Source: Polyangia bacterium (GTDB lineage Bacteria; Myxococcota_A; Polyangia; Fen-1088). Taken from it: a stretch of 64,000 nucleotides of DNA. Shown here in pieces: positions 21,300 through 34,059 of this stretch (its first letter is position 1; every line of letters begins with the position of its first letter). Where the stretch lies: assembly GCA_035578045.1 (NCBI GenBank), contig DATJWP010000096.1, forward strand, positions 18,623-82,622, written 5' to 3'. A program made the position numbers and the translations under genes. The notes below the pieces were generated by a model. It was not told the origin of the DNA. It saw nothing but the letters and a program-made list of their open reading frames with translations, and did no database searches.

Positions 21300-22622
21300 T
21301 CACACGAAACCGGCCAGCGGACCGCTGCACCAGCTGGCCTGGCCGAACGTCGTGTCTGGGATGTCCATCGCGTTCAGGATCGACAGCAGCAGGTTGTTGT
21401 GGGCCAGCCCCTGTCCCTCGAAGTCGAGGTATCGCCCGGTCACCAGCGGACCGCCGCCGGTTCCCGCCAGCACGTAGGGGGCGTCCTGCCGGCTGTGGGT
21501 GTTCCCCTTGGCCAGCTCGTTGCACCAGAGCACCAGCGTGTTGTCGAACAGCGTCCCGCCGCCCGCGTCCGGCGTCGCCTTGAGGCGCGCGATCAGCCCC
21601 GCCATCTGCTGCGCGTACCAGCCGTTGATCTGCGTCAGCTTGCTGACCGCGTCGGTGTCGCTGTCGCTCCGGTGCGAGAGGTCGTGGTGGCCGTCGGAGA
21701 TGCCCAGCCAGGTGAACCTGACCTGCGACACCGAGCGCGACCACTGCAGCGACGCGACCCGGGTCAGGTCGCACGCCAGCGCCATGGTGAGCAGGTCCAT
21801 CTGGATCGCGCCCACCGCCGGGAAGGAGTCGTTCGACTGGGCCGAGACCGGCGGGACGGCGGGGTCGGCGCAGGCCGGGTTGTTCTCGACCAGGCTGGTG
21901 GTGAGGCGCGTCTCGATCTCCCGGATCGCCGTCAGGTGCTGGTCCAGCCGCTGCTTGTCGGCGCTGCTGATCTGGCCCCCGATCCGCGTGTACTCGGCGC
22001 CGACCGCGTCCAGGATCGACTTGTGCCGGGCGCGCTCGCGCGCCAGCACGGTGGGGTCGGTGTGCAGATCGGAGAAGATGGTGTCGTAGACCGCCACCGG
22101 ATCGTCGGTCGGCGGCAGCGGCTGGTTGGCGGCGCGGTAGATCATCCGCCCCCAGTCGTCGGCGGCGCCCACCTGGACCCCGAGCTCGAGCGACCGGAAG
22201 GGCGTGGGCGCGGCCAGCGCCTCGGCGATGCGCTGGTCGACCGAAGGCCCGGTGGCCCAGCCGGCGGGTGGCGCGCCGACGCCGGCGAAGGGCCCGGGGT
22301 TCAGCGGCGTGCCGGTCAGCATTCCGCTGATCCCGTTCTGGTGCCCGTCGCCGCCGCCCCCCTGCTGCAGGAGCCCCTGCACGATCACCAGGTCGCCCTG
22401 GTGGGGCGCCAGCGGCGACAGGATGGGCGACAGCGTGAAGTCGAGCTCGGTGCCGGTCGGCGTCCAGGCCGGCAGCGTGCCGTTGGCCGAAAACATCACC
22501 ACGAACCGCCTGGGCGAAGTCCCGGCGCGGGCGCGGCGCGGGCGCATCGCCTCGAGGAAGGGGAGGGCGATGGCGGCGCCCCCCAGACCGCGCAGGACCG
22601 TCCGTCGCGAGAGCCTTTTCAT
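21300..22622 (-). CDS. DUF1552 domain protein with a Tat-type signal
   Basis: MKRLSRRTVLRGLGGAAIALPFLEAM is followed by a DUF1552-like core. The start overlaps the upstream stop (ATGA). Confidence 0.8.
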   Translation of the reverse strand: MKRLSRRTVLRGLGGAAIALPFLEAMRPRRARAGTSPRRFVVMFSANGTLPAWTPTGTELDFTLSPILSPLAPHQGDLVIVQGLLQQGGGGDGHQNGISGMLTGTPLNPGPFAGVGAPPAGWATGPSVDQRIAEALAAPTPFRSLELGVQVGAADDWGRMIYRAANQPLPPTDDPVAVYDTIFSDLHTDPTVLARERARHKSILDAVGAEYTRIGGQISSADKQRLDQHLTAIREIETRLTTSLVENNPACADPAVPPVSAQSNDSFPAVGAIQMDLLTMALACDLTRVASLQWSRSVSQVRFTWLGISDGHHDLSHRSDSDTDAVSKLTQINGWYAQQMAGLIARLKATPDAGGGTLFDNTLVLWCNELAKGNTHSRQDAPYVLAGTGGGPLVTGRYLDFEGQGLAHNNLLLSILNAMDIPDTTFGQASWCSGPLAGFV

Positions 22623-24223
22623 GGTTGCGACTCCGGTGGGAGGTTGCGGAACTCGGCCATGCGGACGGTCTGGCGGACCATCTGCTTGAAGTCGCCCCCC
22701 GGCGCCGACAGGGTCGCGGCCAGCGCCGCGATCGTGCACAGGTCCCCGCCGGTCTGCTCGCTGCGCCCGAAGGCATAGCGGAACCACTGGGTCGCCGCGC
22801 AGCTGGCCACCTGGGCGCTGCCGGCCAGCTTGGTGGCCAGGCTGGGGATGCCGTCCAGGTCGCCGTCGACGTCGGTGTCGGTCAGCGAGCCGGTCGCGTC
22901 GACCGGCTGATCGGCGTCGGTGTCGCGCCAGACGCCGGTGGCGTCCATGTGCTCGAACGCGAACCCGATCGGGTCCATGTACTCGTGGCAGCTGGCGCAG
23001 AACGGATCGGCGGTGTGCTGCGCGAAGCGCTGGCGGGTCGGCAGCCGCGGGTCGACGACCGGCGGCGCCACCACGACCGTCGGCGGCGGCGGGGGCGGCG
23101 GATGACAGAAGAGCTGCGCCCGCACGAACTTGCCGCGCAGGACCGGCGACGTCTGGTCGGCCTTGGCGTGCACGGCCAGGAAAGCCCCCTGGGTCAGCAT
23201 CCCGGCGGCCCGGGTGGGATCCAGCGCGATGCGCTGGTAGCCGGTCCCGGCCGGTGCGGGCAGGCCGTAGTACGAGGCCAGCGACGCGTCGGCGAAGGTC
23301 ACCGGCGCGGTGAGCAGCGAAGCCAGCGTCGGCCCGCTGTTCCAGGCATCGGCCAGGAACATCGACGTCTCGGTGGCCAGCGCCGCCGGCGTGTCGTCGG
23401 TCCAGTTCCGGAGCAGCGAGCGGTTCTTGTCGATCGTGTCGATGCCTTCGACCTCCCACCACTCGCTGGCGAAGTGGACGAACAGATCCGCGGCGCGCCC
23501 GGCGGCCAGCAGGCGGTCGGTCTGGGCCAGCAGGCCGGATTCCGTGGCCAGGTCACCCCGCTCGGCGGCTTGCAGCAGCGTCTCGTCGGGCGGCGCCGCG
23601 GTCAGCATGAACGCCAGGCGGGTCGCGAGCGCGTACCCGTCCAGCGCCGGTTCCGGCCGATACAGGAACTGCGGCGCCTGCAACATCGCCGCGACCACGC
23701 CCTGGACGCCGTCCGCCGGCCCCGGAGCGGCGGTGGCGGCATAGAGCTGCAGCATCGCCTGCTGTTCGTCGCCGGTCAGCGCGCGGCGCCAGGCACGGCG
23801 CCCGAAGGCGCCGGTGAACGCAGCCACGCAGCCCGCGTCGCCCGCCGTCGGATCGCAGCTGCCGAACGCCGCCAGCAGCGGCGCGTTCGCGACCAGCGCC
23901 GCCGCCGCCTGCTCCGCCGCTTCCAGATAGCGTTCGGCGTGCAGGCTCGAAACGCTGTACACGGTGGCGATGTCGTCGAAGTCCATCGTCTCCTCGTCCG
24001 GCGGCAGGTTCTGCGCGATGGAGGGATCGACGCCGGTCAGATCGGCCAGCGCGTGACCGTACTCGAAGCGCGTGATCCGGCGCAGCGGCGCCGGGCCGGG
24101 GTCGGTGGCGCACAGCGGCGAGCTGGTGGTCGTCGTCGTTCCGGCGCCGCCGGAGTGACAGCCCGACAAGGCCGACAGCAGCACACACAGAGGCAGTCTG
24201 CGCAGCATCGGGCGACCTCCCAT
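22619..24223 (-). CDS. DUF1587/DUF1592/DUF1595/DUF1588/DUF1585-type protein (cytochrome-like CxxCH)
   Basis: Lipobox LSGCH. Motifs RRITRFEYGHALADLTG, TSPVLRGKFVRAQLFC..PPPPPP and CASCHEYMDPIGFAFE are typical of this Planctomycete/Myxobacterial family. Confidence 0.8.
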   Translation of the reverse strand: MGGRPMLRRLPLCVLLSALSGCHSGGAGTTTTTSSPLCATDPGPAPLRRITRFEYGHALADLTGVDPSIAQNLPPDEETMDFDDIATVYSVSSLHAERYLEAAEQAAAALVANAPLLAAFGSCDPTAGDAGCVAAFTGAFGRRAWRRALTGDEQQAMLQLYAATAAPGPADGVQGVVAAMLQAPQFLYRPEPALDGYALATRLAFMLTAAPPDETLLQAAERGDLATESGLLAQTDRLLAAGRAADLFVHFASEWWEVEGIDTIDKNRSLLRNWTDDTPAALATETSMFLADAWNSGPTLASLLTAPVTFADASLASYYGLPAPAGTGYQRIALDPTRAAGMLTQGAFLAVHAKADQTSPVLRGKFVRAQLFCHPPPPPPPTVVVAPPVVDPRLPTRQRFAQHTADPFCASCHEYMDPIGFAFEHMDATGVWRDTDADQPVDATGSLTDTDVDGDLDGIPSLATKLAGSAQVASCAATQWFRYAFGRSEQTGGDLCTIAALAATLSAPGGDFKQMVRQTVRMAEFRNLPPESQP

Positions 24224-26724: not shown

Positions 26725-26751
26725 CGTACCTGAACGATCGATGCAGGTACG
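26725..26751 (-). terminator. Hairpin downstream of the bactofilin operon
   Basis: CGTACCTG-aacgatcgatg-CAGGTACG forms an 8-bp stem 57 nt after the bactofilin stop. No clear U-tract. Confidence 0.35.
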
Positions 26752-26807: not shown

Positions 26808-27284
26808 CTACTGGACGCCGTTCTGATCTTGAGCGGGCGGCTGCTGCTCGGGCTCCGCAGCGGGCTTGCCGCGGCCGTGGCCGTTGCCGCGCGCCGCCGC
26901 GACGGCCTTGGCCTTGTCGGGCGCGTCACCCACCGCCAGCTCGCAGTCGCCGAACACCATCTCGATCCGACCCTCGCTGCGCCGCAGGCTCACCTCCAGC
27001 GACTCGGCGCGGATGATGGTCTTGTCGCGCACGCGGCCCGACAGCTCGACGACCTTGGCGTCGAACTCGCCCGCGATCTCGCCGCGCGAACGGAGCTCGG
27101 TGACCTTGGCCTTGCCGGACAGCACGCCGCTGTCGGCGACCTCGACCGACGGTCCGCTCAGCTCGCCCTCGACGCGCCCTTGCACGACGATGGGACAGGT
27201 CGACGTCAGGGTCCCCTTCAGCTCGGTCCCCTCTTCGATCAGAGTCTTCTTTTCGCTCATCGTCGTCATCCGCCTTTCAGTCAC
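26808..27284 (-). CDS. Bactofilin (DUF583 polymer-forming cytoskeletal protein)
   Basis: The core IEEGTELKGTLTSTCPIVVQGRVEGELSGPSVEVADSGVLSGKAKVTELRSRGEIAGEF has the bactofilin beta-helix periodicity, and the tail is Pro/Gln-rich. Start is either GTG 27284 (GTGA with the upstream stop) or ATG 27269/27260. Confidence 0.85.
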   Translation of the reverse strand: MTERRMTTMSEKKTLIEEGTELKGTLTSTCPIVVQGRVEGELSGPSVEVADSGVLSGKAKVTELRSRGEIAGEFDAKVVELSGRVRDKTIIRAESLEVSLRRSEGRIEMVFGDCELAVGDAPDKAKAVAAARGNGHGRGKPAAEPEQQPPAQDQNGVQ

Positions 27285-28330
27285 TTCACGATCTTCACGC
27301 GCAACCGGCTGCCCCGCTCGAACGCGAAACGGGTCAGCGAGTCGTTTTGCAGCACCGACGCCACCACGGCGCCGCCGCTCGAAACCACCAGCTCGCGGGG
27401 GCCGACGATTCCCGGGCTCTCCCGCTCGAAGAAGTGCCCGTGCACGGTGATCATCCCAGCGCCCGAGATCGTGCAGTCGGCCAGGACGCCGGCCTCGCCG
27501 ATCACCAGCTCGGTCCCGTCGCCCACGTTGATGGCGCAGTTCTCGAACAGGCTGTCGATCTCGACGCGGGCGCCGCCGTCGAAGTCCAGCGTGGCGTTCT
27601 TCAGCACGTCGCCGCGCCCGAAGTATCGACGCGACGCCGGCGCGGTCGCGGCCGCGGCCGGCCGCCGCAGACCGCTGAGCAGGCCCGGGATCTCGCCGTT
27701 GGTGATCCGGCCGGTGCCGTCGCCCGCTTCGCTGGTGTCGAGCCAGGCGACCAGCACGTCCCCCAGCGGGGCGCCGGTGCCGATCAGGCCGGCCACCTTG
27801 GCGCCCGTGAAGTCCGCCTTGGTCAAGATGGCGCCGCGCAGGTTGACCGCCCGCATGTCGGCCTCCATGGCCTTGACCGCGCCCAGCGCCGACTCCTCGA
27901 AGTTGGCGTGGGTGAGCACCGCGTGGCGCAGGTCCGCGCCGGTCAGGTTCGCCGCGCTGACCTGCGCAAACGACAGCAGCGCGCCCGAGAGGTTCGCGCC
28001 GGCCAGGCTGGCTCCGTCCAGGTTCGCGCGCGCCAGGTTGGCGCGCGAGAGGTTCGCCCGATCCAGCTTGGCCCCTTCCAGGTCGGCGTTCTCGAGGTTC
28101 GCCTCCTGCAGGTCGCTGCCGACCAGGTAGGCCTCGCGCAGGCTGGCGTTCTTGAGCGTGGCCTTGCGCAGGACCACCGCCTCGAGGTTGGCGCCTTCCA
28201 GATCGGCGCGCGACAGCGCCGCGCCCGGCATCGACGCGCGCGAGAGATCGATCCCACGCAGGTCCGCGCGGTCGAGCTTCTCGTTCTTGCGCAGCTTCTG
28301 AAGAGCCTGGTCGCGTGTCAGCTCACCCAT
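27281..28330 (-). CDS. Pentapeptide-repeat protein with a C-terminal beta-helix-like domain
   Basis: About 32 contiguous A(D/N)LxX pentads (ADLRG IDLSR ... ADFTG AKVAG) occupy nt 27791..28270. A 170-aa second domain follows. Confidence 0.9.
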   Translation of the reverse strand: MGELTRDQALQKLRKNEKLDRADLRGIDLSRASMPGAALSRADLEGANLEAVVLRKATLKNASLREAYLVGSDLQEANLENADLEGAKLDRANLSRANLARANLDGASLAGANLSGALLSFAQVSAANLTGADLRHAVLTHANFEESALGAVKAMEADMRAVNLRGAILTKADFTGAKVAGLIGTGAPLGDVLVAWLDTSEAGDGTGRITNGEIPGLLSGLRRPAAAATAPASRRYFGRGDVLKNATLDFDGGARVEIDSLFENCAINVGDGTELVIGEAGVLADCTISGAGMITVHGHFFERESPGIVGPRELVVSSGGAVVASVLQNDSLTRFAFERGSRLRVKIVK

Positions 28331-29622
28331 GTCCGTCCTTCCTCTCGCTTCTTGGCCTTGGCAGACTGGGCCGTCCGCCCGATCAGCTCCTCGACCTCGT
28401 CGATCTTCTTGTTGAATGGCAGCTTCTCGAGCCGCTGGACCAGGTCGACCTCGCCCAGCCGCACCAGCTCGATCGTGATCTGCAGCAGCGAGACCTGGCG
28501 CTCTCGCCTCAGGTGCCGCTTCCCGATCCGGCCCTGCTCCGACCAGTTCCGGGAGGCGCCCTCGAACGCGCCGTGCTGGGTGCGCAGGTCGGCCACCAGG
28601 CGGGCCAGCTCGCGCAGCGTGGCCCCCGTGTCGACCGCGGCCAGCCCGGCGGGCGTCGCCTGCCGGAACGCCTGGACCCGCGCCACCAGGGCCGCCGCGA
28701 CCTCGTCGGCGATGCCGCTCACCGCGGCGATCTCCTCGGCGCGCCCCGCGTACAGCGCCGACAGCTTGCCGAACCCGGCCGCCGTCAGCTTCTCGATCGA
28801 GAGCGGATCAAGGCCGGGGACCTGCTCGAGCAGCGCCCGGACGATCAGCGGCTCGCGTCGATCCCGCTCGCCCTGCAGCTCGAACGCGCGGGGCAGGCAG
28901 GCGCGCAGCGGCGCGTAGGCGGCCAGCAGCGCGTCGCGCGCGGCAGCCGAGGGCGTCGCGGGCTGACCGGGCGCCAGGACGTCCGCGAGCGCCGCGTCGA
29001 ACCGATCGAGCGCCTCGACCAGCGCGGTGTGCCCGACCGGCTCGGCCATCTTGCGCAGCGACCGCAGCACCGGGCGGGCCATCTCGAGCCAGCTGGCCTG
29101 GGCCTCGCCCCACTGCAGCTCCATCATCGCGCCCCGGATCTCGGCCACGTAGGGGACGGCCAGGTCCTCGAACGTCGCGCGGAGGGCCGCCTGATCGGAG
29201 GCCGTCGAGGCGCCATGCGCGACCTTGGCGGCCGGCTCGGCGCCCAGCGCCTTTTCGATGGCCAGGTCGACCGAGCCGCTGTCGGGCTCCGTGATCGTGG
29301 TGGGAACGGCCACGGGCGGCGGCAGAACCGGCGGGCGCACCGCGCCGTAGGCCATGGTGGTCGAGAGCTCGGGGCGTTTCCAGGCGCCGTTGGGCGGCGC
29401 CGGAATGGGCGGCGTCGCGGGGGTGGCGGCGGCCGGATGGACCCCGTTCGGCTTGGCCGGGGGCGCGGGTGGGAACGGAGGCGGCGGGGCCGGCGCTTGC
29501 GCCGCTGTCTCACTGGAATCTGCGGTCGGGTGCGAGCTGCGCTCACCTCGCGCCGGCGGCTCGGCGGCGGGCCTGGACGCCTCGCCCGCGGCGGGCTTCT
29601 TGAGTCGCGAGAAGATGCTCAT
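28318..29622 (-). CDS. Proline-rich protein with helix-hairpin-helix-like motifs
   Basis: 434 aa with a Pro-rich N-terminal 100 aa. HhH-like motifs VPGLDPLSIEKLTAAGF and VSGIADEVAAALV. The 3' end overlaps the pentapeptide gene by 13 nt. Confidence 0.6.
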   Translation of the reverse strand: MSIFSRLKKPAAGEASRPAAEPPARGERSSHPTADSSETAAQAPAPPPPFPPAPPAKPNGVHPAAATPATPPIPAPPNGAWKRPELSTTMAYGAVRPPVLPPPVAVPTTITEPDSGSVDLAIEKALGAEPAAKVAHGASTASDQAALRATFEDLAVPYVAEIRGAMMELQWGEAQASWLEMARPVLRSLRKMAEPVGHTALVEALDRFDAALADVLAPGQPATPSAAARDALLAAYAPLRACLPRAFELQGERDRREPLIVRALLEQVPGLDPLSIEKLTAAGFGKLSALYAGRAEEIAAVSGIADEVAAALVARVQAFRQATPAGLAAVDTGATLRELARLVADLRTQHGAFEGASRNWSEQGRIGKRHLRRERQVSLLQITIELVRLGEVDLVQRLEKLPFNKKIDEVEELIGRTAQSAKAKKREEGRTWVS

Positions 29623-29708: not shown

Positions 29709-30509
29709 TTGTTGGAGCGCATGCGCTGCGCCCTGATCGTTTCCGTCCTGGCGGCCGGCGCCATGGGGGCCTGCAGTCAATCGCTGACCAGCAGCACGCC
29801 GGGGACGGGCGGATCCGGGACGGGAGCCGGCGGCGCAGGTGGATCGTCCCTGGAGTCGATGTGCGACAGCCTGGTCACTCAGTATCAGGCCGCGATCGTC
29901 GATGCGCAGACCTGCGGCGTCGGGCGGCCTGGGCAATGTCAGGTGAAGGTCGATTCCGCCCTGTCGTCCTGCGGTTCCTGTCCGACTTACGTGAACGACC
30001 TTTCGAAACCGATGGCGATCGAGCAGGCCTGGTTCGGCGCCGGTTGCAACCAGCTTCCGTCGGCTCCGTGCGTCGTATCAACCTGCATCAGCACGACCAA
30101 CGCCGACATGTGCGGCGTCGCGCCGGGCAGCACCCACGGGACCTGCAGCTATGCCTCGCCGGGGACCGACGGTGGCTGGGGCTGGCCGGACGGTGGTTCC
30201 AGCATCTGCGACACCCTGGACCAGAAGTACCAGGCGGCAATGCCGGCCGCGAAAAGTTGCAACCCCGCCACACCCACGCAGTGCCAGACGGTCGTGCCGT
30301 TGGATCTCTCCTGCTACGGTGGGTGCGGGATCTACGTGAACGACGCGACCGAGCTCTCGGCCATCCAGCAGGCGTGGGATGCGGCCGGCTGCCCCACCGC
30401 GTCGGTGGTGTGCCCGGGAATCGGCTGCCTGCCGGTCATCGGGAGCGCGTGCGCCGCGACGGACGGCGGCGGCGCGGCCTGCTCGACCTCGTACGACGTT
30501 TTCCGGTGA
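29709..30509 (+). CDS. Secreted lipoprotein with two tandem 8-Cys modules
   Basis: Lipobox AMGACS and a Gly-rich linker. Two colinear modules of about 100 aa follow (CDSLVTQYQAA..YVND..IEQAW..AGC and CDTLDQKYQAA..YVND..IQQAW..AGC). Confidence 0.65.
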   Translation: MLERMRCALIVSVLAAGAMGACSQSLTSSTPGTGGSGTGAGGAGGSSLESMCDSLVTQYQAAIVDAQTCGVGRPGQCQVKVDSALSSCGSCPTYVNDLSKPMAIEQAWFGAGCNQLPSAPCVVSTCISTTNADMCGVAPGSTHGTCSYASPGTDGGWGWPDGGSSICDTLDQKYQAAMPAAKSCNPATPTQCQTVVPLDLSCYGGCGIYVNDATELSAIQQAWDAAGCPTASVVCPGIGCLPVIGSACAATDGGGAACSTSYDVFR

Positions 30510-30519
30510 GGCTGCGCGC

Positions 30520-31773
30520 TCAGCGAACGCAACGAACCTGGGCCGTATTGGACATGACGTCGGCCTCGGGATTTCCCATCCCGAAGTAGACGCGCCAGGC
30601 GCTGGCGCTCATTCCGGCCAGCGGCGATGCCGACCAGAAGTAGTCCGCCGTCGCGTCGAGCGCCGTGGTGTCGATGGTGGGGCCCGGGCGGGCGACGCCG
30701 AAGTCCACCAGCGTGAGCAGCTCTTTCTTGGTGGGGAGGCGCCAGCCCGTGCCTCCGAGCGCCGCCACCAGGGAGCCGGCGCAATAGGCCTTGGCGTCCG
30801 CCCACGTCATCGGCGTCGGCGCCGGGAACTCCTGCCAGGTGAGCCTGGTCCCGGCGTCGTAGACGGTCGCGCCGGCGCTGGTGTAGCGGGCGGGTGGGGC
30901 GCCCGCGTCGGCCGTGGCGTTCGGGTCGATCCCCACGCACCGAACGGAGAACGTCGACGACGTGGCGTAGGTGTCGACGAAGCCGCCGCCGAACCCGACG
31001 GCCCACGCGTAGCCGGTCTGGCCCGCGTCGGCCAGGGATGACCAGAAGGAGCTGTTCGCCGGCGTCCCGGGGAAGGCGGTGGCGTTGATGGTGGGCCCGG
31101 GGCTCACGACGGTGTCGTCGATCAGCGACGCCAGCTCGATGGGCGTCGGCAGGCGCCACCGGCGGTTGGCCAGGCTCAACCCGGGGCAATAGGTCTTGGC
31201 GTTGGACCAGGTGTACTGGCTCGAGGGCGGGGTCTGCTGCCAGACCAGGCCGGTGACGTCGTCGGTCACGGTGCCGTCGACGCTGACCGAGTAAGCCATC
31301 GGGTTCGGCGCGCCGGCCGCGACGTCCGCGGTGTCGTTCGGCATCGGCCAGCCGGCCCAGCGCGGGTCGATGCTGCCACCGAGCGACAGGCCGCCCGCTC
31401 CGCCGGTGCCGCTTCCGTTGCCGGCGGCGCCCACGACGCCCCCGCTGCCGCCACCCGTCCCGGTGATCGCGCCTGCTCCGGCGCCACCGCCGGTGCCCAC
31501 GCGGCCGCCGGTGGCGGCGCCGCCCGAGCCGGAGGCGTTGCCGTTCCCGCTGACCTGGCCGTCGCCGCCGGCCGCCTGGCCGTCGCTGCCGGCAGAGCCG
31601 ACCGTGTTGCCGCCGGCGTTGCCCGCGCCGGTGCCGGCGCTGTTGCCACCATGCCCTCCGGGCGCGCCTCCGCCGGGGTGGGATGCCGGCAAGCTGCTCG
31701 AGCTGCAGCCGACCAGCAATGAGAGGAGCGTTGCGCGTCGGAGCCTCTGTCCAGTGCCCATCAGGTCCCCCAT
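30520..31773 (-). CDS. DUF1566 (Lcl C-terminal-like) domain lipoprotein, two copies
   Basis: Start ATG at 31773 or 31761. Lipobox LLVGCS and a Gly-rich linker. Motifs WRLPTPIELASLID and WRLPTKKELLTLVD. Confidence 0.75.
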   Translation of the reverse strand: MGDLMGTGQRLRRATLLSLLVGCSSSSLPASHPGGGAPGGHGGNSAGTGAGNAGGNTVGSAGSDGQAAGGDGQVSGNGNASGSGGAATGGRVGTGGGAGAGAITGTGGGSGGVVGAAGNGSGTGGAGGLSLGGSIDPRWAGWPMPNDTADVAAGAPNPMAYSVSVDGTVTDDVTGLVWQQTPPSSQYTWSNAKTYCPGLSLANRRWRLPTPIELASLIDDTVVSPGPTINATAFPGTPANSSFWSSLADAGQTGYAWAVGFGGGFVDTYATSSTFSVRCVGIDPNATADAGAPPARYTSAGATVYDAGTRLTWQEFPAPTPMTWADAKAYCAGSLVAALGGTGWRLPTKKELLTLVDFGVARPGPTIDTTALDATADYFWSASPLAGMSASAWRVYFGMGNPEADVMSNTAQVRCVR

Positions 31774-32097
31774 CTCGGTACAACGGGGGGGAACTATTTC
31801 ATACTTCCAATCTCTCACTGGAACGCGAACCAGCCGCGCAGCGTGCCGGCATGGGGCTGGTCGCAATTCGGTCCCCCGAGGCCGGCCCGGGCTGGCGGTG
31901 AGAAAACTGTCAGTGGGCTGGTCGCCGCAGGCCGCGAGCCCGACGACCGAAAATGCGAAAACCGGCGCCCGCACCAAAGATCGAAGATTCATGAAGGTCT
32001 TCGGTGAGCTGCCCCTGTGCAAGTGGCGCACGGCCAGGGGCGTTCCCGTCACGTCGCGGCTTGAATCGGGAACGCCGAGATCCTAGGCTCCCGCCTG

Positions 32098-34059
32098 GTG
32101 CGCGAGAGGACCACCAGCGCGACCGCCCTGATTCTCACCGGGCTCCTGGTGAGCGGCGGCCAGACCTCGAAAGCGGCGCCGGCGCCACCGGCGCCCGTGA
32201 GCGGCGGCGACGTCCTGGTCATCGACGGCGGGCACGCGACCGGCCAGACCACGCTGGAGAACGCGCAGCGCGACGGCCTGACCGTCGTCGATCTCTCGGA
32301 CGACTGGCTGCCGTACATCTTCTCCGAGGAGCCGGGGAAGCCGCAGCCGATGCGCCCCTATCTGATCGATCTGGCCAACGGGCGGTTCCGCGCGAGCAGC
32401 GCCTATGCGCGGGCCCGCGAGGACCGCTTCTTCGAGGCGTTCGGGATCTTCCCCAGCCTGAACCTGGTGCGGAAGCGGCTGGCCGACAAGAAGCGCCACG
32501 CCTGCCACGAGCGGGTGAAGGACTCGGTGCTCGAGGAGCTGTCGGCCAAGAACGTGATCCCGGCCGAGGAGGCCGAGAAGGTCCCCAACCCCGACACCGC
32601 GGCGGTCGCGGCCGGCACGGCGCCGGCCATGATTCCGACCGGCAAGACCGTCTCGCCGCGCCCGCTGACCCCGACCGAGAAGCGGGCCGTGATCGCGATG
32701 CAGGCCCACCTGCGCTGCGAGGACGTGCTGTCGGGCAAGGCGACCGCCGGCCGGATGGATCGGCGAACGGTCGAGGGGCTCAAGGTCTACCAGCGGCTGC
32801 AGATGCTCGCCGACAGCGGCAACATCGATCCAGAGACGCGCGCGGCGCTGCTGGGCGACACGCACGAGCAGGACTTCCGGGCCTTGCTGCGGGCGCTGCG
32901 GGCCCGGGTCGTCGACGCGACGGGTTTGATCGAGGACGGCTCGGCGGCCGGGGTCCTGGGTCAGGTTCAGGGGCGCCTGCTCGACACCGCGGAGTTCCAG
33001 CCGCTGCCCGCGCAAGCGGCCGGCGAAAAGCCCCCGGCCGGGACGCCCGCGCCGGCGGCGGCGGCGAAGATCGTCCCGGCGCCCGATCTGATCGCGGCGG
33101 CGACCCAGGCGGCCACGCAGGCGCTCGGCTGGACGTCGCCGGACGCCGTCCTCGCCAGCACGCTGGTCGCGGCGCCGCCCGCCGGCAAGAAACCGGCCCG
33201 CGGCGCGGCCCGCAAGGGGCTGGCCCCCTTGCCGGCGGCGGTCGCGATCCGGCTCCCGCCGCCGCCCCCTTACCACAGCGCCAACATGGAGCTGCGCGCC
33301 GAGATCGATCGCGGTCAGGTCAACCTGGAGCGGCCCAAGCTCGACAAGGAAGGGCACAAGAAGTGGAAGCCCCCGGTCGCCGACCGCCCGACCATCACGC
33401 TGTACGCGCGCGCGGGTGACCACGAGGTGGCCCTGTGCCGCTGGCCGACCACGATCGGCGGCTGGAAGACGTTCGAGAAGTCGGACGGCACCATGGCGCT
33501 CAAATACAAGGAGTCCGTGACGGGCGACGCCGTCTGGCCGGAGGTCCTGGCCACGCCGACCTGGCACCCGGCGCCGGGGATGCCGACGCGCCGGCTGCTC
33601 ATCAAGGTGGGCGACTCGTTCGTTCCGAAGACCGAGATCATCGGCCCCGGCTACCACGCCGCCTACGGGCTGGTGGCGATCGTCCACCACCAGATCATGG
33701 GCGTCGACGACAAGGGCCAGCAGCAGCTCGAGGACCTGCGGATCCGCACGCACGGCACGCCCGGCTACCGATCGGTCAAGCGCGGCGAGAGCAACGGCTG
33801 CCACCGCCTGCACAACTTCGAGGCCTTGCGGCTGGCGAGCTTCCTGGTCAAGCACCACGCGAACGTGCGCGACGGCCTGGTGCCCGAGGACTACGTGCGG
33901 CACCTGCAGTACAAGGGGCAGGACATCGCGTTGCAGAGCGACAGCAAGGGTTACCGCTTCCGATTGACGCCGCCCGTGCCGGTCAAGGTTCTGGACGGCG
34001 ACATCCACGGCGACGCCAAGGCCGTCAAGCGAATGGTGCCGCTGGCCACGGTCCCGTAG
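32098..34059 (+). CDS. L,D-transpeptidase (YkuD) family protein with a peptidoglycan-binding-like domain
   Basis: Signal-like N-terminus. PG_binding-like region AMQAHLRCEDVLSGKATAGRMDRRTVEGLKVYQ. Catalytic motif THGTPGYRSVKRGESNGCHRL. Confidence 0.8.
   Translation: MRERTTSATALILTGLLVSGGQTSKAAPAPPAPVSGGDVLVIDGGHATGQTTLENAQRDGLTVVDLSDDWLPYIFSEEPGKPQPMRPYLIDLANGRFRASSAYARAREDRFFEAFGIFPSLNLVRKRLADKKRHACHERVKDSVLEELSAKNVIPAEEAEKVPNPDTAAVAAGTAPAMIPTGKTVSPRPLTPTEKRAVIAMQAHLRCEDVLSGKATAGRMDRRTVEGLKVYQRLQMLADSGNIDPETRAALLGDTHEQDFRALLRALRARVVDATGLIEDGSAAGVLGQVQGRLLDTAEFQPLPAQAAGEKPPAGTPAPAAAAKIVPAPDLIAAATQAATQALGWTSPDAVLASTLVAAPPAGKKPARGAARKGLAPLPAAVAIRLPPPPPYHSANMELRAEIDRGQVNLERPKLDKEGHKKWKPPVADRPTITLYARAGDHEVALCRWPTTIGGWKTFEKSDGTMALKYKESVTGDAVWPEVLATPTWHPAPGMPTRRLLIKVGDSFVPKTEIIGPGYHAAYGLVAIVHHQIMGVDDKGQQQLEDLRIRTHGTPGYRSVKRGESNGCHRLHNFEALRLASFLVKHHANVRDGLVPEDYVRHLQYKGQDIALQSDSKGYRFRLTPPVPVKVLDGDIHGDAKAVKRMVPLATVP

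Follow-up and report, generated by a model that had tools for sequence, protein, structure and literature searches.

On the minus strand of the window (the whole stretch of 64,000 nucleotides that was analysed) there are three tightly packed open reading frames, all of them where the initial annotation had placed them.

28318..29622, minus strand: gene 1, encoding a helix-hairpin-helix (HhH) protein; ORF of 434 aa, first in the operon
27281..28330, minus strand: gene 2, encoding a pentapeptide-repeat protein (PRP); ORF of 349 aa
26808..27284, minus strand: gene 3, encoding a bactofilin, as an ORF; 158 aa from GTG 27284
26808..27260, minus strand: gene 3 with the preferred start, picked from orthologues; 150 aa from ATG 27260
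27261..27280, minus strand: PRP-bactofilin junction, with a conserved, Shine-Dalgarno-like GAAAGGCGGATGA element
26725..26751, minus strand: 8-bp hairpin (arms 26725-26732 and 26744-26751; CGTACCTG/CAGGTACG) with an 11-nt loop

The description of these genes as an interlocked trio is borne out. The HhH and PRP genes overlap by 13 nt as claimed, at 28318-28330 of the window; orthologous loci instead leave some 13-40 nt between the two genes, where a ribosome-binding site of the GAGGAGG type is found. It had also been proposed that the bactofilin starts at the GTGA where the PRP gene ends. The GTGA is present at 27281-27284, but a start there is less likely than one at ATG 27260, which is 20 nt past the PRP stop and has a GAAAGGCGG element before it, because the start ATG-AGC-GA(A/G) (MSE or MTE) is common to every orthologous locus. 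Other possible upstream starts are ATG 27269 and GTG 27284. The same AAAGGCGGA-TGA/TAG element as in the window is found at the PRP-bactofilin junction of loci L001, L003, L006, L007, L010 and L014. True ATGA overlaps of 4 nt are seen at the junction in several orthologues, and tight coupling of these two genes is therefore a family property. The 8-bp hairpin reported after the bactofilin gene is likewise there, about 57 nt past the stop codon. No U tract is attached to it, terminator calling gave no terminator at this position, and the predicted folding of the region does not exceed that of shuffled sequences (z = -0.91); its significance is doubtful.

Conservation, duplication and fusion of the genes

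The order HhH, PRP, bactofilin is found in 18 further loci besides the window, with an HhH orthologue preceding the PRP gene in each of the 18 and the PRP gene lying between the other two in all triad loci. The full triad is present in the complete genome of the cultured Pendulispora albinea. A comparison of neighbouring genes across the triad loci found none that is conserved. Since the order recurs in 18 further loci with unshared flanks, the arrangement is far beyond chance, and the recurring order supports the original view of the three genes as a conserved functional module around a bactofilin.

The core of the module is the PRP-bactofilin pair. The two genes are adjoining or fused in 21 of the 21 informative loci, a bactofilin is next to the PRP in all eight loci that were retrieved via the PRP itself, and two loci (L012 and L013) carry a tandem duplication of the whole pair. 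The HhH gene is missing from three of the eight PRP-anchored loci and is therefore not obligatory: some lineages can do without it but not without the pair. This had been overlooked in the initial annotation. The triad family is seen in Polyangia-type genomes, with no Myxococcus name among the matches. Similarly, the 201 members found of the HhH protein family are so far only from Polyangia-type myxobacteria, and the protein of the window is 100% identical to one annotated as hypothetical in a Polyangia MAG.

The PRP, its C-terminal domain and the bactofilin form one polypeptide in at least seven different sequences (P0282, P0302, P0353, P0361/P0452, P0373/P0453). Their samples of origin are independent, and clustering at 50% identity puts them in at least four groups. 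The occurrence of gene fusions argues for a physical association of the module proteins, as the earlier idea of a complex had supposed. One of the fusion loci adjoins rarA, and another is divergent from mraZ-rsmH, the head of the dcw cluster. A fusion of the HhH protein to the PRP is seen in one sequence only (P0346, from a contig of 5.6 kb), and could have arisen from a frameshift error.

Domains of the three proteins

The PRP is predicted by AF2 (mean pLDDT 91) to consist of two β-helices, a pentapeptide-repeat rod and a bactofilin-like C-terminal domain.

27761..28270, minus strand: pentapeptide-repeat rod, residues 21-190, about 33-34 repeats; PF00805
27629..27760, minus strand: conserved cap segment (W-L-D-x-S-x-x-G-D-G...N-G-E-I-P-x-L-L-S-G, conserved in alignments A2 and A6) and short disordered linker
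27284..27628, minus strand: C-terminal domain, residues 235-349 (115 residues); AF2 pLDDT 93.9, pTM 0.86

The protein matches PF00805 at 134.5 bits (cut-off 20.2, E 7.5e-40). The AF2 model has about 33 pentapeptide strands in residues 23-183, one per 5 residues, which is near the 32 repeats originally claimed, with a capping helix at residues 6-14 ahead of the rod. The rod differs in length among orthologues by blocks of 60 aa, equal to three coils, and is near neutral, with a net charge of -1 over 170 residues (-5 to +1 in orthologues). In common with Qnr, MfpA and AlbG, it is predicted to be a right-handed quadrilateral β-helix of A(D/N)LxX repeats; unlike them, it is near neutral and is extended by the bactofilin-like domain. 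The top Foldseek matches of the rod model are PRP structures. Among them, PRPs of consensus or cyanobacterial type (HetL, Np275/276) come nearest in fold, at 32-40% identity, compared to only 12-23% for the structures of Qnr, MfpA and AlbG. The closest relatives in sequence and structure are PRPs of the HetL, Np275/Np276 and Alr5209 families (Foldseek E 1e-11 to 1e-14), although the NCBIfam scores are under cut-off for both Alr5209 (104 bits, cut-off 125) and HetL (88 bits, cut-off 260), and the models and structures of these relatives stop short of the C-terminal domain. We know of no bactofilin partner for such PRPs.

The cap has a pLDDT of 80-87, falling to 44 at linker residues 223-231, and the pTM is 0.61 for the full PRP compared to 0.86 for the C-terminal domain alone. 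This indicates that, as modelled, the PRP is composed of two rigid modules flexibly joined.

The C-terminal domain is the most conserved part of the PRP, with 64-85% identity across loci compared to 43-88% for the repeats. Its family has 180 representatives among 1.84 billion (1.84e9) proteins, and it stands after pentapeptide repeats in the architectures examined. It has no Pfam match and no PDB sequence match, and hhalign against bactofilins gives a probability of 0.9-1.3% even with 272 sequences. Nevertheless, a structural search of the PDB puts a bactofilin filament subunit first, that of T. thermophilus (6RIB_A; TMq 0.66, TMt 0.79; rmsd 2.7 Å over the whole domain, probability 1.00, Foldseek E 0.074), and the model also matches BacA 2N3D (TM 0.56/0.65). 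The domain is thus predicted to have a bactofilin fold, hidden at the sequence level. The initial annotation had missed this cryptic domain. Small β-helices tend to look alike, and the similarity could be convergent, given that there is no sequence homology and that the Foldseek E is only 0.074.

Gene 3 encodes a canonical bactofilin, scoring 44 bits against PF04519 (cut-off 27.9). Its profile matches the bactofilin structures 6RIA and 2N3D, and its C-terminal tail is rich in Pro, Ala and Lys. The norm for the family is membrane association by a short N-terminal peptide. Here the N-terminal tail is very short, MSE(T)KK right before the first β-strand, and inspection of the tails of the operon bactofilins, in the window and in orthologues, found no peptide resembling such a membrane-targeting sequence (MTS).

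The HhH protein contains the following regions.

29596..29622, minus strand: N-terminal peptide MSIFSRLKK, a candidate MTS or short docking motif
29218..29586, minus strand: Pro/Ala-rich low-complexity linker, residues 13-135; 24% Pro, 21% Ala
28849..29217, minus strand: conserved region, residues 136-258, with dense invariant columns, ending in an invariant F-E-L-x-G-E-R-D-R-R-E-P
28657..28848, minus strand: degenerate (HhH)2 domain, residues 259-322; HHH_5 22.2 bits, residues 264-314
28321..28656, minus strand: basic C-terminal region, residues 323-434, with conserved columns; net +5, pI 10.1

In the alignment of HhH proteins (A1), M1-S2-I3-F4 are invariant and S5-R6 nearly so. The motif MSIFS[RK]L is present in 63 of the 120 family members listed, and those that do not have it look like truncated gene calls; it is found once per locus, always at the start of the HhH gene. 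The peptide, which had also been passed over, resembles the bactofilin MTS as established by experiment (consensus MFSKKKK, BacA MFSKQAKS, MFSRKTE; PMC12448750), the likeness covering about 5 residues with the hydrophobic pair shifted two positions relative to M1-F2 of BacA. In lineages that have no HhH gene, the PRP itself has an N-terminal extension with a Pro-rich linker; that of P0353 begins MSLISRLF, and that of P0315 carries a zinc ribbon. The linker of the HhH protein varies in length and sequence, being poorly aligned in A1 with many indels, and in Pendulispora has grown to some 400 aa rich in Ser and Pro. For residues 136-258, Pfam at E<=10 gave one chance-level match only, and a PDB sequence search gave no match.

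The HHH_5 score of the window protein is under the cut-off of 27. However, 17 of 21 aligned family members match this profile (best E 1.8e-7), and at the family level an (HhH)2 fold is supported. There are weak PDB profile matches to the HhH regions of LigA, UvrC and RadA, where GIG and GVG stand in place of the GLE/GLD and GIP/GIA found here. In both hairpins (PGLDP, SGIAD) the GhG signature is without its second glycine and the basic residues that come after GhG in UvrC are missing, and the domain is acidic (net -1, pI 5.15). The domain therefore resembles the (HhH)2 of UvrC, LigA, RadA and RuvA in having two consecutive helix-hairpin-helix motifs, and differs from it in its degenerate hairpins, its acidity, and its position between two novel conserved regions. 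For the C-terminal region there was no PDB match and no homologue was recognised. The proposal that this protein binds DNA thus keeps its fold, and is left weak by the degenerate hairpins and the acidic domain.

Related systems and alternative readings

Taken together, the locus most likely encodes a composite bactofilin scaffold rather than a DNA-mimic or topoisomerase complex. The bactofilin scaffold BacNOP-PadC-ParABS of Myxococcus xanthus (PMC5703909; bioRxiv 10.1101/2020.06.17.156356) is similar in that myxobacterial bactofilin polymers are encoded in an operon with a dedicated adaptor, with paralogous bactofilin-fold proteins in both operons; the difference is that the adaptor here is a PRP with a bactofilin-like domain, and not ParA-like. 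No ParA or ParB domain is present in the three proteins or the scanned immediate neighbours, and a chromosome link of the module is not supported. Client adaptors or paralogues elsewhere include BacB of C. crescentus, LmdC of H. neptunium, and the CcmA-Csd5/Csd7 system of H. pylori. As in BacA/BacB-PbpC, BacA-LmdC and CcmA-Csd5/Csd7, a bactofilin scaffold is here encoded together with a partner. In contrast to the bactofilin systems described for these species, such as BacA-PbpC (PMC12448750), the unit contains no peptidoglycan enzyme, the second bactofilin-fold protein is beyond sequence recognition and has a PRP rod of about 170 residues, and the MTS-like peptide is carried by a third protein instead of the bactofilin. 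The halofilins were also discovered through their fold. HalA and HalB, described as archaeal bactofilin families (PMC11459167), are likewise divergent bactofilin-type proteins outside the classical family, but are archaeal, have other architectures, and contain no pentapeptide repeats.

It is possible, if tentative, that the module is a scaffold for cell-envelope morphogenesis. The PRP rod would then be the adaptor for a client enzyme of the peptidoglycan or envelope, and the HhH protein the membrane anchor. This reading is about the client alone and does not conflict with the structural model of a composite scaffold. It is consistent with the functions described for bactofilins, mostly in cell shape and peptidoglycan (PMC12448750), with the MTS-like N-terminus of the HhH protein, with the fusion locus at mraZ-rsmH, and with a gene of the window, 2.5 kb away, that has a PG_binding_1 domain and, by eye, an L,D-transpeptidase-like active-site motif. 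However, neither of these neighbours is conserved across loci, the conserved unit contains no envelope enzyme, and reading the three proteins by eye revealed neither a signal peptide nor a transmembrane segment.

Somewhat less likely is that the PRP controls the length or number of polymers, and is not a repeating co-polymer subunit. Its C-terminal domain would then have one polymerisation-competent end, and would cap or nucleate bactofilin filaments or form finite PRP-Bac-Bac-PRP rods. The domain matches the fold of a bactofilin subunit while its sequence has diverged past recognition from polymerising bactofilins, as would follow from altered polymer interfaces. On the other hand, one-to-one fusions and translational coupling imply stoichiometric and not substoichiometric amounts. 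Simple capping of long filaments is a poor fit to this, whereas finite rods agree with it.

The model first proposed, in which the module is a nucleoid anchor or topoisomerase modulator, now looks improbable. In it, the bactofilin would hold in position an HhH protein that binds DNA without sequence specificity and a PRP that mimics DNA towards gyrase or topoisomerase IV, in the manner of Qnr and MfpA. The (HhH)2 fold, with its weak UvrC, LigA and RadA matches, is in its favour, as are the basic C-terminal 112 residues of the HhH protein (net +5, pI 10), which could bind nucleic acid, the fusion locus beside rarA, and the organisation of ParABS by the Myxococcus bactofilins BacNOP via PadC (as described in PMC5703909). 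Against it, the PRP scores only 44 bits against Qnr (cut-off 240) and 49 bits against MfpA (cut-off 360), its structural neighbours are generic or cyanobacterial, and its rod is near neutral where a DNA mimic is expected to be strongly anionic; a role as DNA mimic or topoisomerase effector is thus not supported. In addition, the PRP runs into a bactofilin-like domain where Qnr and MfpA have their dimerisation end, the HhH hairpins do not have the GhG signature and flanking basic residues, there is no conserved par, topoisomerase or nucleoid-protein gene near the loci, and some lineages do without the HhH gene. Finally, that these are mere co-transcribed neighbours forming no complex, with a coincidental small β-helix, is hardly credible: despite the undetectable sequence homology and the Foldseek E noted above, the pair is always adjoining or fused among unconserved flanks, has been duplicated, is repeatedly fused in independent samples, and has a C-terminal domain family essentially confined to the PRP-bactofilin context.

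A proposed composite scaffold

We therefore propose, with moderate confidence, that the locus encodes a lineage-specific, self-contained, three-protein composite bactofilin scaffold. The polymer would be formed by the canonical bactofilin. The PRP would be a two-module adaptor, made up of the rigid rod of about 33 repeats, the short flexible linker and the bactofilin-fold β-helix, which would dock end-on onto the bactofilin or co-assemble with it in roughly stoichiometric amounts. Protruding rods would decorate or interrupt the polymer, and may serve as a spacer or as a binding surface for a client. The HhH protein would be an accessory tether, in which MSIFSRLKK and the long disordered Pro-rich linker supply in trans the membrane targeting that the bactofilin does not have, while binding of the PRP-bactofilin assembly, and perhaps also of nucleic acid, would fall to the GERDRREP region, the degenerate (HhH)2 and the basic C-terminus.

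In full-text searches, no paper came up on the three-gene module or on any link between bactofilins and pentapeptide-repeat proteins, in agreement with the initial annotation, which knew of no such system. This is thus a three-gene cytoskeletal module undescribed so far and, judging from the genomes in which it is found, one that is apparently specific to the soil myxobacteria of the Polyangia group.

Organisation and conservation of the triad

The window, which has a high GC content of about 70-73%, contains three minus-strand open reading frames exactly where the initial annotation had placed an HhH protein, a pentapeptide-repeat protein (PRP) and a bactofilin. These are listed here with the junction between the last two; L numbers denote other genomic loci, and P numbers the protein sequences of single relatives.

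28318-29622, minus strand: HhH-family gene, 434 aa
27281-28330, minus strand: PRP gene, 349 aa
26808-27284, minus strand: bactofilin gene, 158 aa
27261-27284: junction element AAAGGCGGA followed by TGA or TAG, also present at the PRP stop in L001, L003, L006, L007, L010 and L014

Pfam confirms two of the three family assignments: the PRP matches PF00805 with 134.5 bits (cut-off 20.2) and the bactofilin matches PF04519 with 44 bits (cut-off 27.9; E 2.6e-11, residues 14-98), a profile of the orthologous bactofilins also matching the structures 6RIA (E 4e-4) and 2N3D (E 5e-4). The HhH-family protein has a 100% identical counterpart, annotated as hypothetical, in a Polyangia MAG. The 13-nt overlap between the HhH-family and PRP genes is present in the window, as is the GTGA at 27281-27284, but the latter is not where the bactofilin appears to begin. 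The start ATG-AGC-GA(A/G), preceded by the conserved AAAGGCGGA element, is universal among the compared orthologues, which makes ATG 27260, 20 nt past the PRP stop, the most likely start of the window bactofilin. In several orthologues this junction is a genuine ATGA overlap. It is worth adding that the element brings together the final K-G-G codons of the PRP, its stop and a Shine-Dalgarno-like sequence, joined in some loci by an overlapping ATG; the PRP stop of the window lies 12 nt earlier than elsewhere, yet the element is kept.

The 8-bp hairpin described downstream of the bactofilin gene does exist (26725-26751), but shows no sign of a terminator role or of an unusual fold (z = -0.91). 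It has no U tract, and an intrinsic terminator at this point was rejected, since the scan of the minus strand called none and the fold of the region is unexceptional. Rfam and tRNA scans across the whole window gave no matches.

The three-gene order extends well beyond this genome. A profile of the HhH protein was scanned against one genome per GTDB species and identified 14 loci, all of them in Polyangia, Kofleriaceae or 'Myxococcales' MAGs, with the order HhH, PRP, bactofilin in every one of the 13 loci in which the contig continues. Two of these (L012 and L013) have the order HhH-PRP-Bac-PRP-Bac, and the PRP-bactofilin pair has therefore been duplicated as a unit. Eight more contexts were retrieved via PRP relatives. 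The triad is complete in L015, L016, L017, L019 and L021, L017 being the complete genome of the cultured myxobacterium Pendulispora albinea; L020 has a PRP followed by a bactofilin without the HhH gene; and in L018 and on the P0282 contig PRP and bactofilin are fused, again without the HhH gene. PRP and bactofilin thus adjoin or are fused in all 21 informative loci. These two make up the core of the system, and the HhH gene is a frequent, non-obligatory accessory.

In the fusions, one polypeptide holds pentapeptide repeats and the PRP C-terminal domain, joined by a linker to a bactofilin domain that Pfam confirms (P0282, P0302, P0353, P0361 with P0452, and P0373 with P0453). The samples behind them are independent, and the sequences form at least four clusters at 50% identity. 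Such fusions are classical Rosetta-stone evidence, which points to a physical or functional partnership of PRP and bactofilin. There is also one fusion of the HhH protein to the PRP (P0346), a singleton on a short contig, which is only a hint of a link between those two.

In the fusion lineage (L018 1-2417 and 4724-9651, and the P0282 contig), one contig has the gene oriented divergently to mraZ-rsmH, where the dcw cluster begins, and the other has it behind a rarA-like AAA+ gene, with a helical-repeat protein of ~2000 aa downstream in both. A further relative, P0188 (114 aa, on a 585-bp metagenome contig), is a chimera: at a shared 'GVL' motif, the N-terminal half of an operon-type bactofilin passes into the PRP C-terminal domain, of which it has the second half. 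It could be an artefact of assembly or else a natural recombinant of the two β-helices.

None of the flanking genes of the window is conserved in any compared locus, and they therefore give no guilt-by-association clue to a client. The neighbours of the triad are unrelated secreted or envelope proteins, and none of the following is kept beside the triad in other loci.

22619-24223, minus strand: DUF1585-1595 (PSD/PSCyt) protein
29709-30509, plus strand: Cys-rich, secreted-looking protein with an internal duplication
30520-32052, minus strand: protein with two Lcl_C (DUF1566) domains
32098-34059, plus strand: protein of 653 aa, PG_binding_1 domain; a motif like the L,D-transpeptidase active site (HG...SNGCHR) was seen by eye

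An origin of the triad as a defence system or mobile element was dropped, because the PADLOC defence models matched none of the three proteins and the PRP C-terminal domain was absent from the plasmid and phage collections searched.

The pentapeptide-repeat rod and the C-terminal domain

The PRP comprises a repeat rod (residues 21-190), a cap and linker (191-234) and a C-terminal domain (235-349). AlphaFold2 models the full-length protein with a pLDDT of 91, falling to 44 at residues 223-231 between the modules. The rod is predicted as an N-terminal capping helix followed by about 33 pentapeptide strands, with a strand every five residues and pLDDT >90. It has the tandem A(D/N)LxX repeats and the quadrilateral β-helix that mark PF00805, and the top 13 Foldseek matches are all PRP structures. 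The closest of these are consensus-designed and cyanobacterial PRPs (32-40% identity); the structures of Qnr, MfpA, EfsQnr and AlbG align with the rod at 12-23% identity.

The initial annotation had proposed that the PRP is a DNA mimic of the Qnr/MfpA type, acting with a DNA-binding HhH protein and the bactofilin in a nucleoid-anchoring or topoisomerase-modulating complex. The PRP does not match that class: it scores 44.2 bits against the NCBIfam Qnr model (cut-off 240), 48.7 against MfpA (cut-off 360) and 30-46 against the Qnr subfamily models (cut-offs 425-500). Nor is it anionic, the rod having a net charge of -1 (pI 6.2) and the rods of 14 orthologues between -5 and +1, these being net charges and not surface electrostatics. 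Proteins of the Qnr/MfpA type form tail-to-tail homodimers and inhibit or protect gyrase, and in this PRP the C-terminal end of the rod runs on into another domain. The rod of the window (27761-28270) was also compared with the PRP orthologues in L003-L008 and L011-L014. The PRPs of the window, L001 and L002 have about 350 aa and most others 409-420 aa, with L010 intermediate at 376 aa; the longer PRPs exceed the window type by exactly 60 residues, which is 12 pentapeptides or three coils. A length that changes in such blocks suits a spacer or display rod more than it suits a calibrated DNA mimic.

Conservation within the PRP is highest not in the rod but in the C-terminal domain (27284-27628), at 64-85% identity across loci; the repeat region has 43-88% and the HhH protein 40-63%. 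This domain has no Pfam match at E<=10, and a profile search against the PDB gave only a match at chance level. Its family numbers only 180 members in an exhaustive HMM search over 1.84 billion representative proteins, and in every full-length architecture examined the domain is located C-terminal to pentapeptide repeats. Free-standing short versions were set aside, their contexts being frameshifted long-read assembly fragments or contig ends with a normal triad.

Foldseek searches with the full-length model were dominated by the repeat rod and were uninformative on the C-terminal domain, which was therefore modelled alone. AlphaFold2 gave a pLDDT of 93.9 and a pTM of 0.86, each turn of ~19 residues having three short strands. 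Bactofilins have a triangular, right-handed β-helix, and the modelled domain is a small β-helix that superposes on a bactofilin subunit. Its best match in the PDB is the filament subunit of Thermus thermophilus bactofilin, 6RIB_A (TMq 0.66, TMt 0.79, rmsd 2.7 Å over 115 columns, probability 1.00, E 0.074), and Caulobacter BacA (2N3D) also matches (TM 0.56/0.65). Sequence homology was rejected as evidence, hhalign giving a probability of 0.9% against the operon bactofilins and, globally and locally with 272 C-terminal domain sequences against about 25 bactofilins, at most 1.3%. The claim is thus that the domain is predicted to have a bactofilin-like fold; it is a claim about fold and not a demonstration of homology.

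Ahead of the flexible linker, residues 191-234 (27629-27760) cap the rod with a strongly conserved sequence, W-L-D-x-S-x-x-G-D-G-x-x-R-x-x-N-G-E-I-P-x-L-L-S-G. The segment is modelled as a small hairpin and helix with pLDDT 80-87, and could be an interaction site.

The HhH-family protein and its putative membrane-targeting peptide

In an alignment of 21 relatives, the protein opens with an invariant N-terminus, MSIFSR(L)(K/R)(K/R). A Pro/Ala-rich linker, whose length differs between relatives, leads to a strongly conserved stretch that closes with F-E-L-x-G-E-R-D-R-R-E-P, and after this come the (HhH)2 domain and a C-terminal region that is basic (net +5). Searches of Pfam, NCBIfam and PDB sequences with the regions either side of the HhH domain found no relatives, and a likeness to HPt domains seen by eye at residues about 180-200 was dropped, having no statistical support. 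The HHH_5 model (PF14520) scores 22.2 bits on the window protein (cut-off 27), and is found at E<=0.01 in 17 of the 21 relatives (best 1.8e-7), reaching 31.4 bits in P0346.

In (HhH)2 domains that bind DNA, basic residues beside the GhG hairpins contact the phosphate backbone. The hairpins here have neither the GhG signature nor the adjoining basic residues of UvrC and LigA: hairpin 1 is PGLDP (PGL[DE]P, DLET or ELEP in the family) compared with PGIGPIRKKK in UvrC, and hairpin 2 is SGIAD (G[IV][GPA] in the family) compared with GVGP in LigA. The domain is acidic, with a net charge of -1 and a pI of 5.15. It therefore looks degenerate for DNA binding, contrary to the DNA-binding role first proposed, and the gene is dispensable in some lineages. 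With a PRP that is neither Qnr/MfpA-like nor anionic, this weakens the nucleoid/topoisomerase model, which loses both of its pillars and is left as an unlikely alternative.

The N-terminal motif of MSIFSR type is present in 63 of the 120 family members listed, the remainder looking like truncated gene calls. Each locus has a single copy, invariably at the start of the HhH-family gene. In Pendulispora albinea (CP089984.1, L017 5999-7966) the motif lies ahead of the annotated start and of a Ser/Pro-rich linker of ~400 aa: the gene is called as 280 aa, but its open reading frame can be followed back to MSIFSRLFNKGQ for a total of about 655 aa, and the public annotation has probably cut the gene short.

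Membrane-targeting sequences (MTS) of bactofilins have been defined experimentally: MFSKQAKS for BacA, a global consensus of MFSKKKK and MFSRKTE for Proteus mirabilis (PMC12448750). To judge by these examples, the MSIFSRLKK of the HhH protein resembles a bactofilin MTS. When the operon bactofilins were examined for an MTS of the MFSKKKK type, which is typical of canonical bactofilins bound to the membrane, none was found, the MSEKK of the window protein running straight into the first strand. The orthologous bactofilins begin MSE(T)KK, MNEGKR, MIEKSSS and similar, with tails that are short or unrelated. In lineages without the HhH gene, the PRP has its own N-terminal module on a Pro-rich linker: P0353 begins MSLISRLF and P0315 (L020 4001-5692) carries a zinc ribbon, with a Pro-rich linker in both. 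These extensions suggest a modular exchange of the targeting end.

A proposed composite bactofilin scaffold

The best-supported reading is that the triad encodes a lineage-specific composite bactofilin scaffold. Bactofilins polymerise independently of nucleotides into non-polar filaments, and here the canonical bactofilin would form the polymer. The PRP would attach to it or co-assemble with it through the bactofilin-like C-terminal helix, projecting the rigid rod. The HhH protein would serve as an accessory tether, which may bind the membrane in trans through its N-terminal peptide. The data show the conservation of the module, the duplication of the pair, the fusions, the modelled fold of the C-terminal domain and the conserved peptide; from these we infer direct binding between PRP and bactofilin, assembly as either a co-polymer or a cap, tethering to the membrane, and a client for the scaffold. 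A bolder version, which we hold only tentatively and consider rather unlikely, is that this is a new kind of bactofilin cytoskeleton. Its polymer would be heteromeric, a sequence-cryptic bactofilin paralogue with a rigid PRP rod alternating with or capping the canonical bactofilin, and MSIFSRLKK, on the long disordered tether of a third protein, would provide membrane attachment in trans.

BacNOP-PadC and BacA-PbpC are likewise scaffolds of a bactofilin with an adaptor, and the two bactofilin-fold proteins proposed here recall paralogous bactofilin pairs. The present system differs from all of these in that its second bactofilin-fold protein escapes recognition by sequence and carries a fused PRP rod, in that the MTS-like peptide is on a separate protein, and in that the unit includes no Par protein or cell-wall enzyme. 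A scaffold of the BacNOP-PadC type has a co-encoded ParA-like adaptor and a link to ParB/parS; here neither a ParA nor a ParB domain turned up in the triad proteins or in the immediate neighbours scanned in the window. A full-text literature search returned no paper linking bactofilins to pentapeptide-repeat proteins; the one co-mention was unrelated.

The module is present in Pendulispora albinea, which is cultured and fully sequenced, and experiments are therefore feasible. If the bolder version is true, this would be the first structural, cytoskeletal role for a pentapeptide-repeat protein, and the first bactofilin to outsource its membrane anchor. The module is a possible case of membrane targeting in trans. 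Most pentapeptide-repeat proteins outside the Qnr/MfpA class have no assigned function, and bactofilins are widespread scaffolds with few known clients or adaptors. A conserved partnership backed by fusions gives the PRP a concrete and testable role as a structural element of a cytoskeletal polymer, and a bactofilin-fold domain invisible to sequence methods suggests that the bactofilin superfamily is larger than Pfam indicates.
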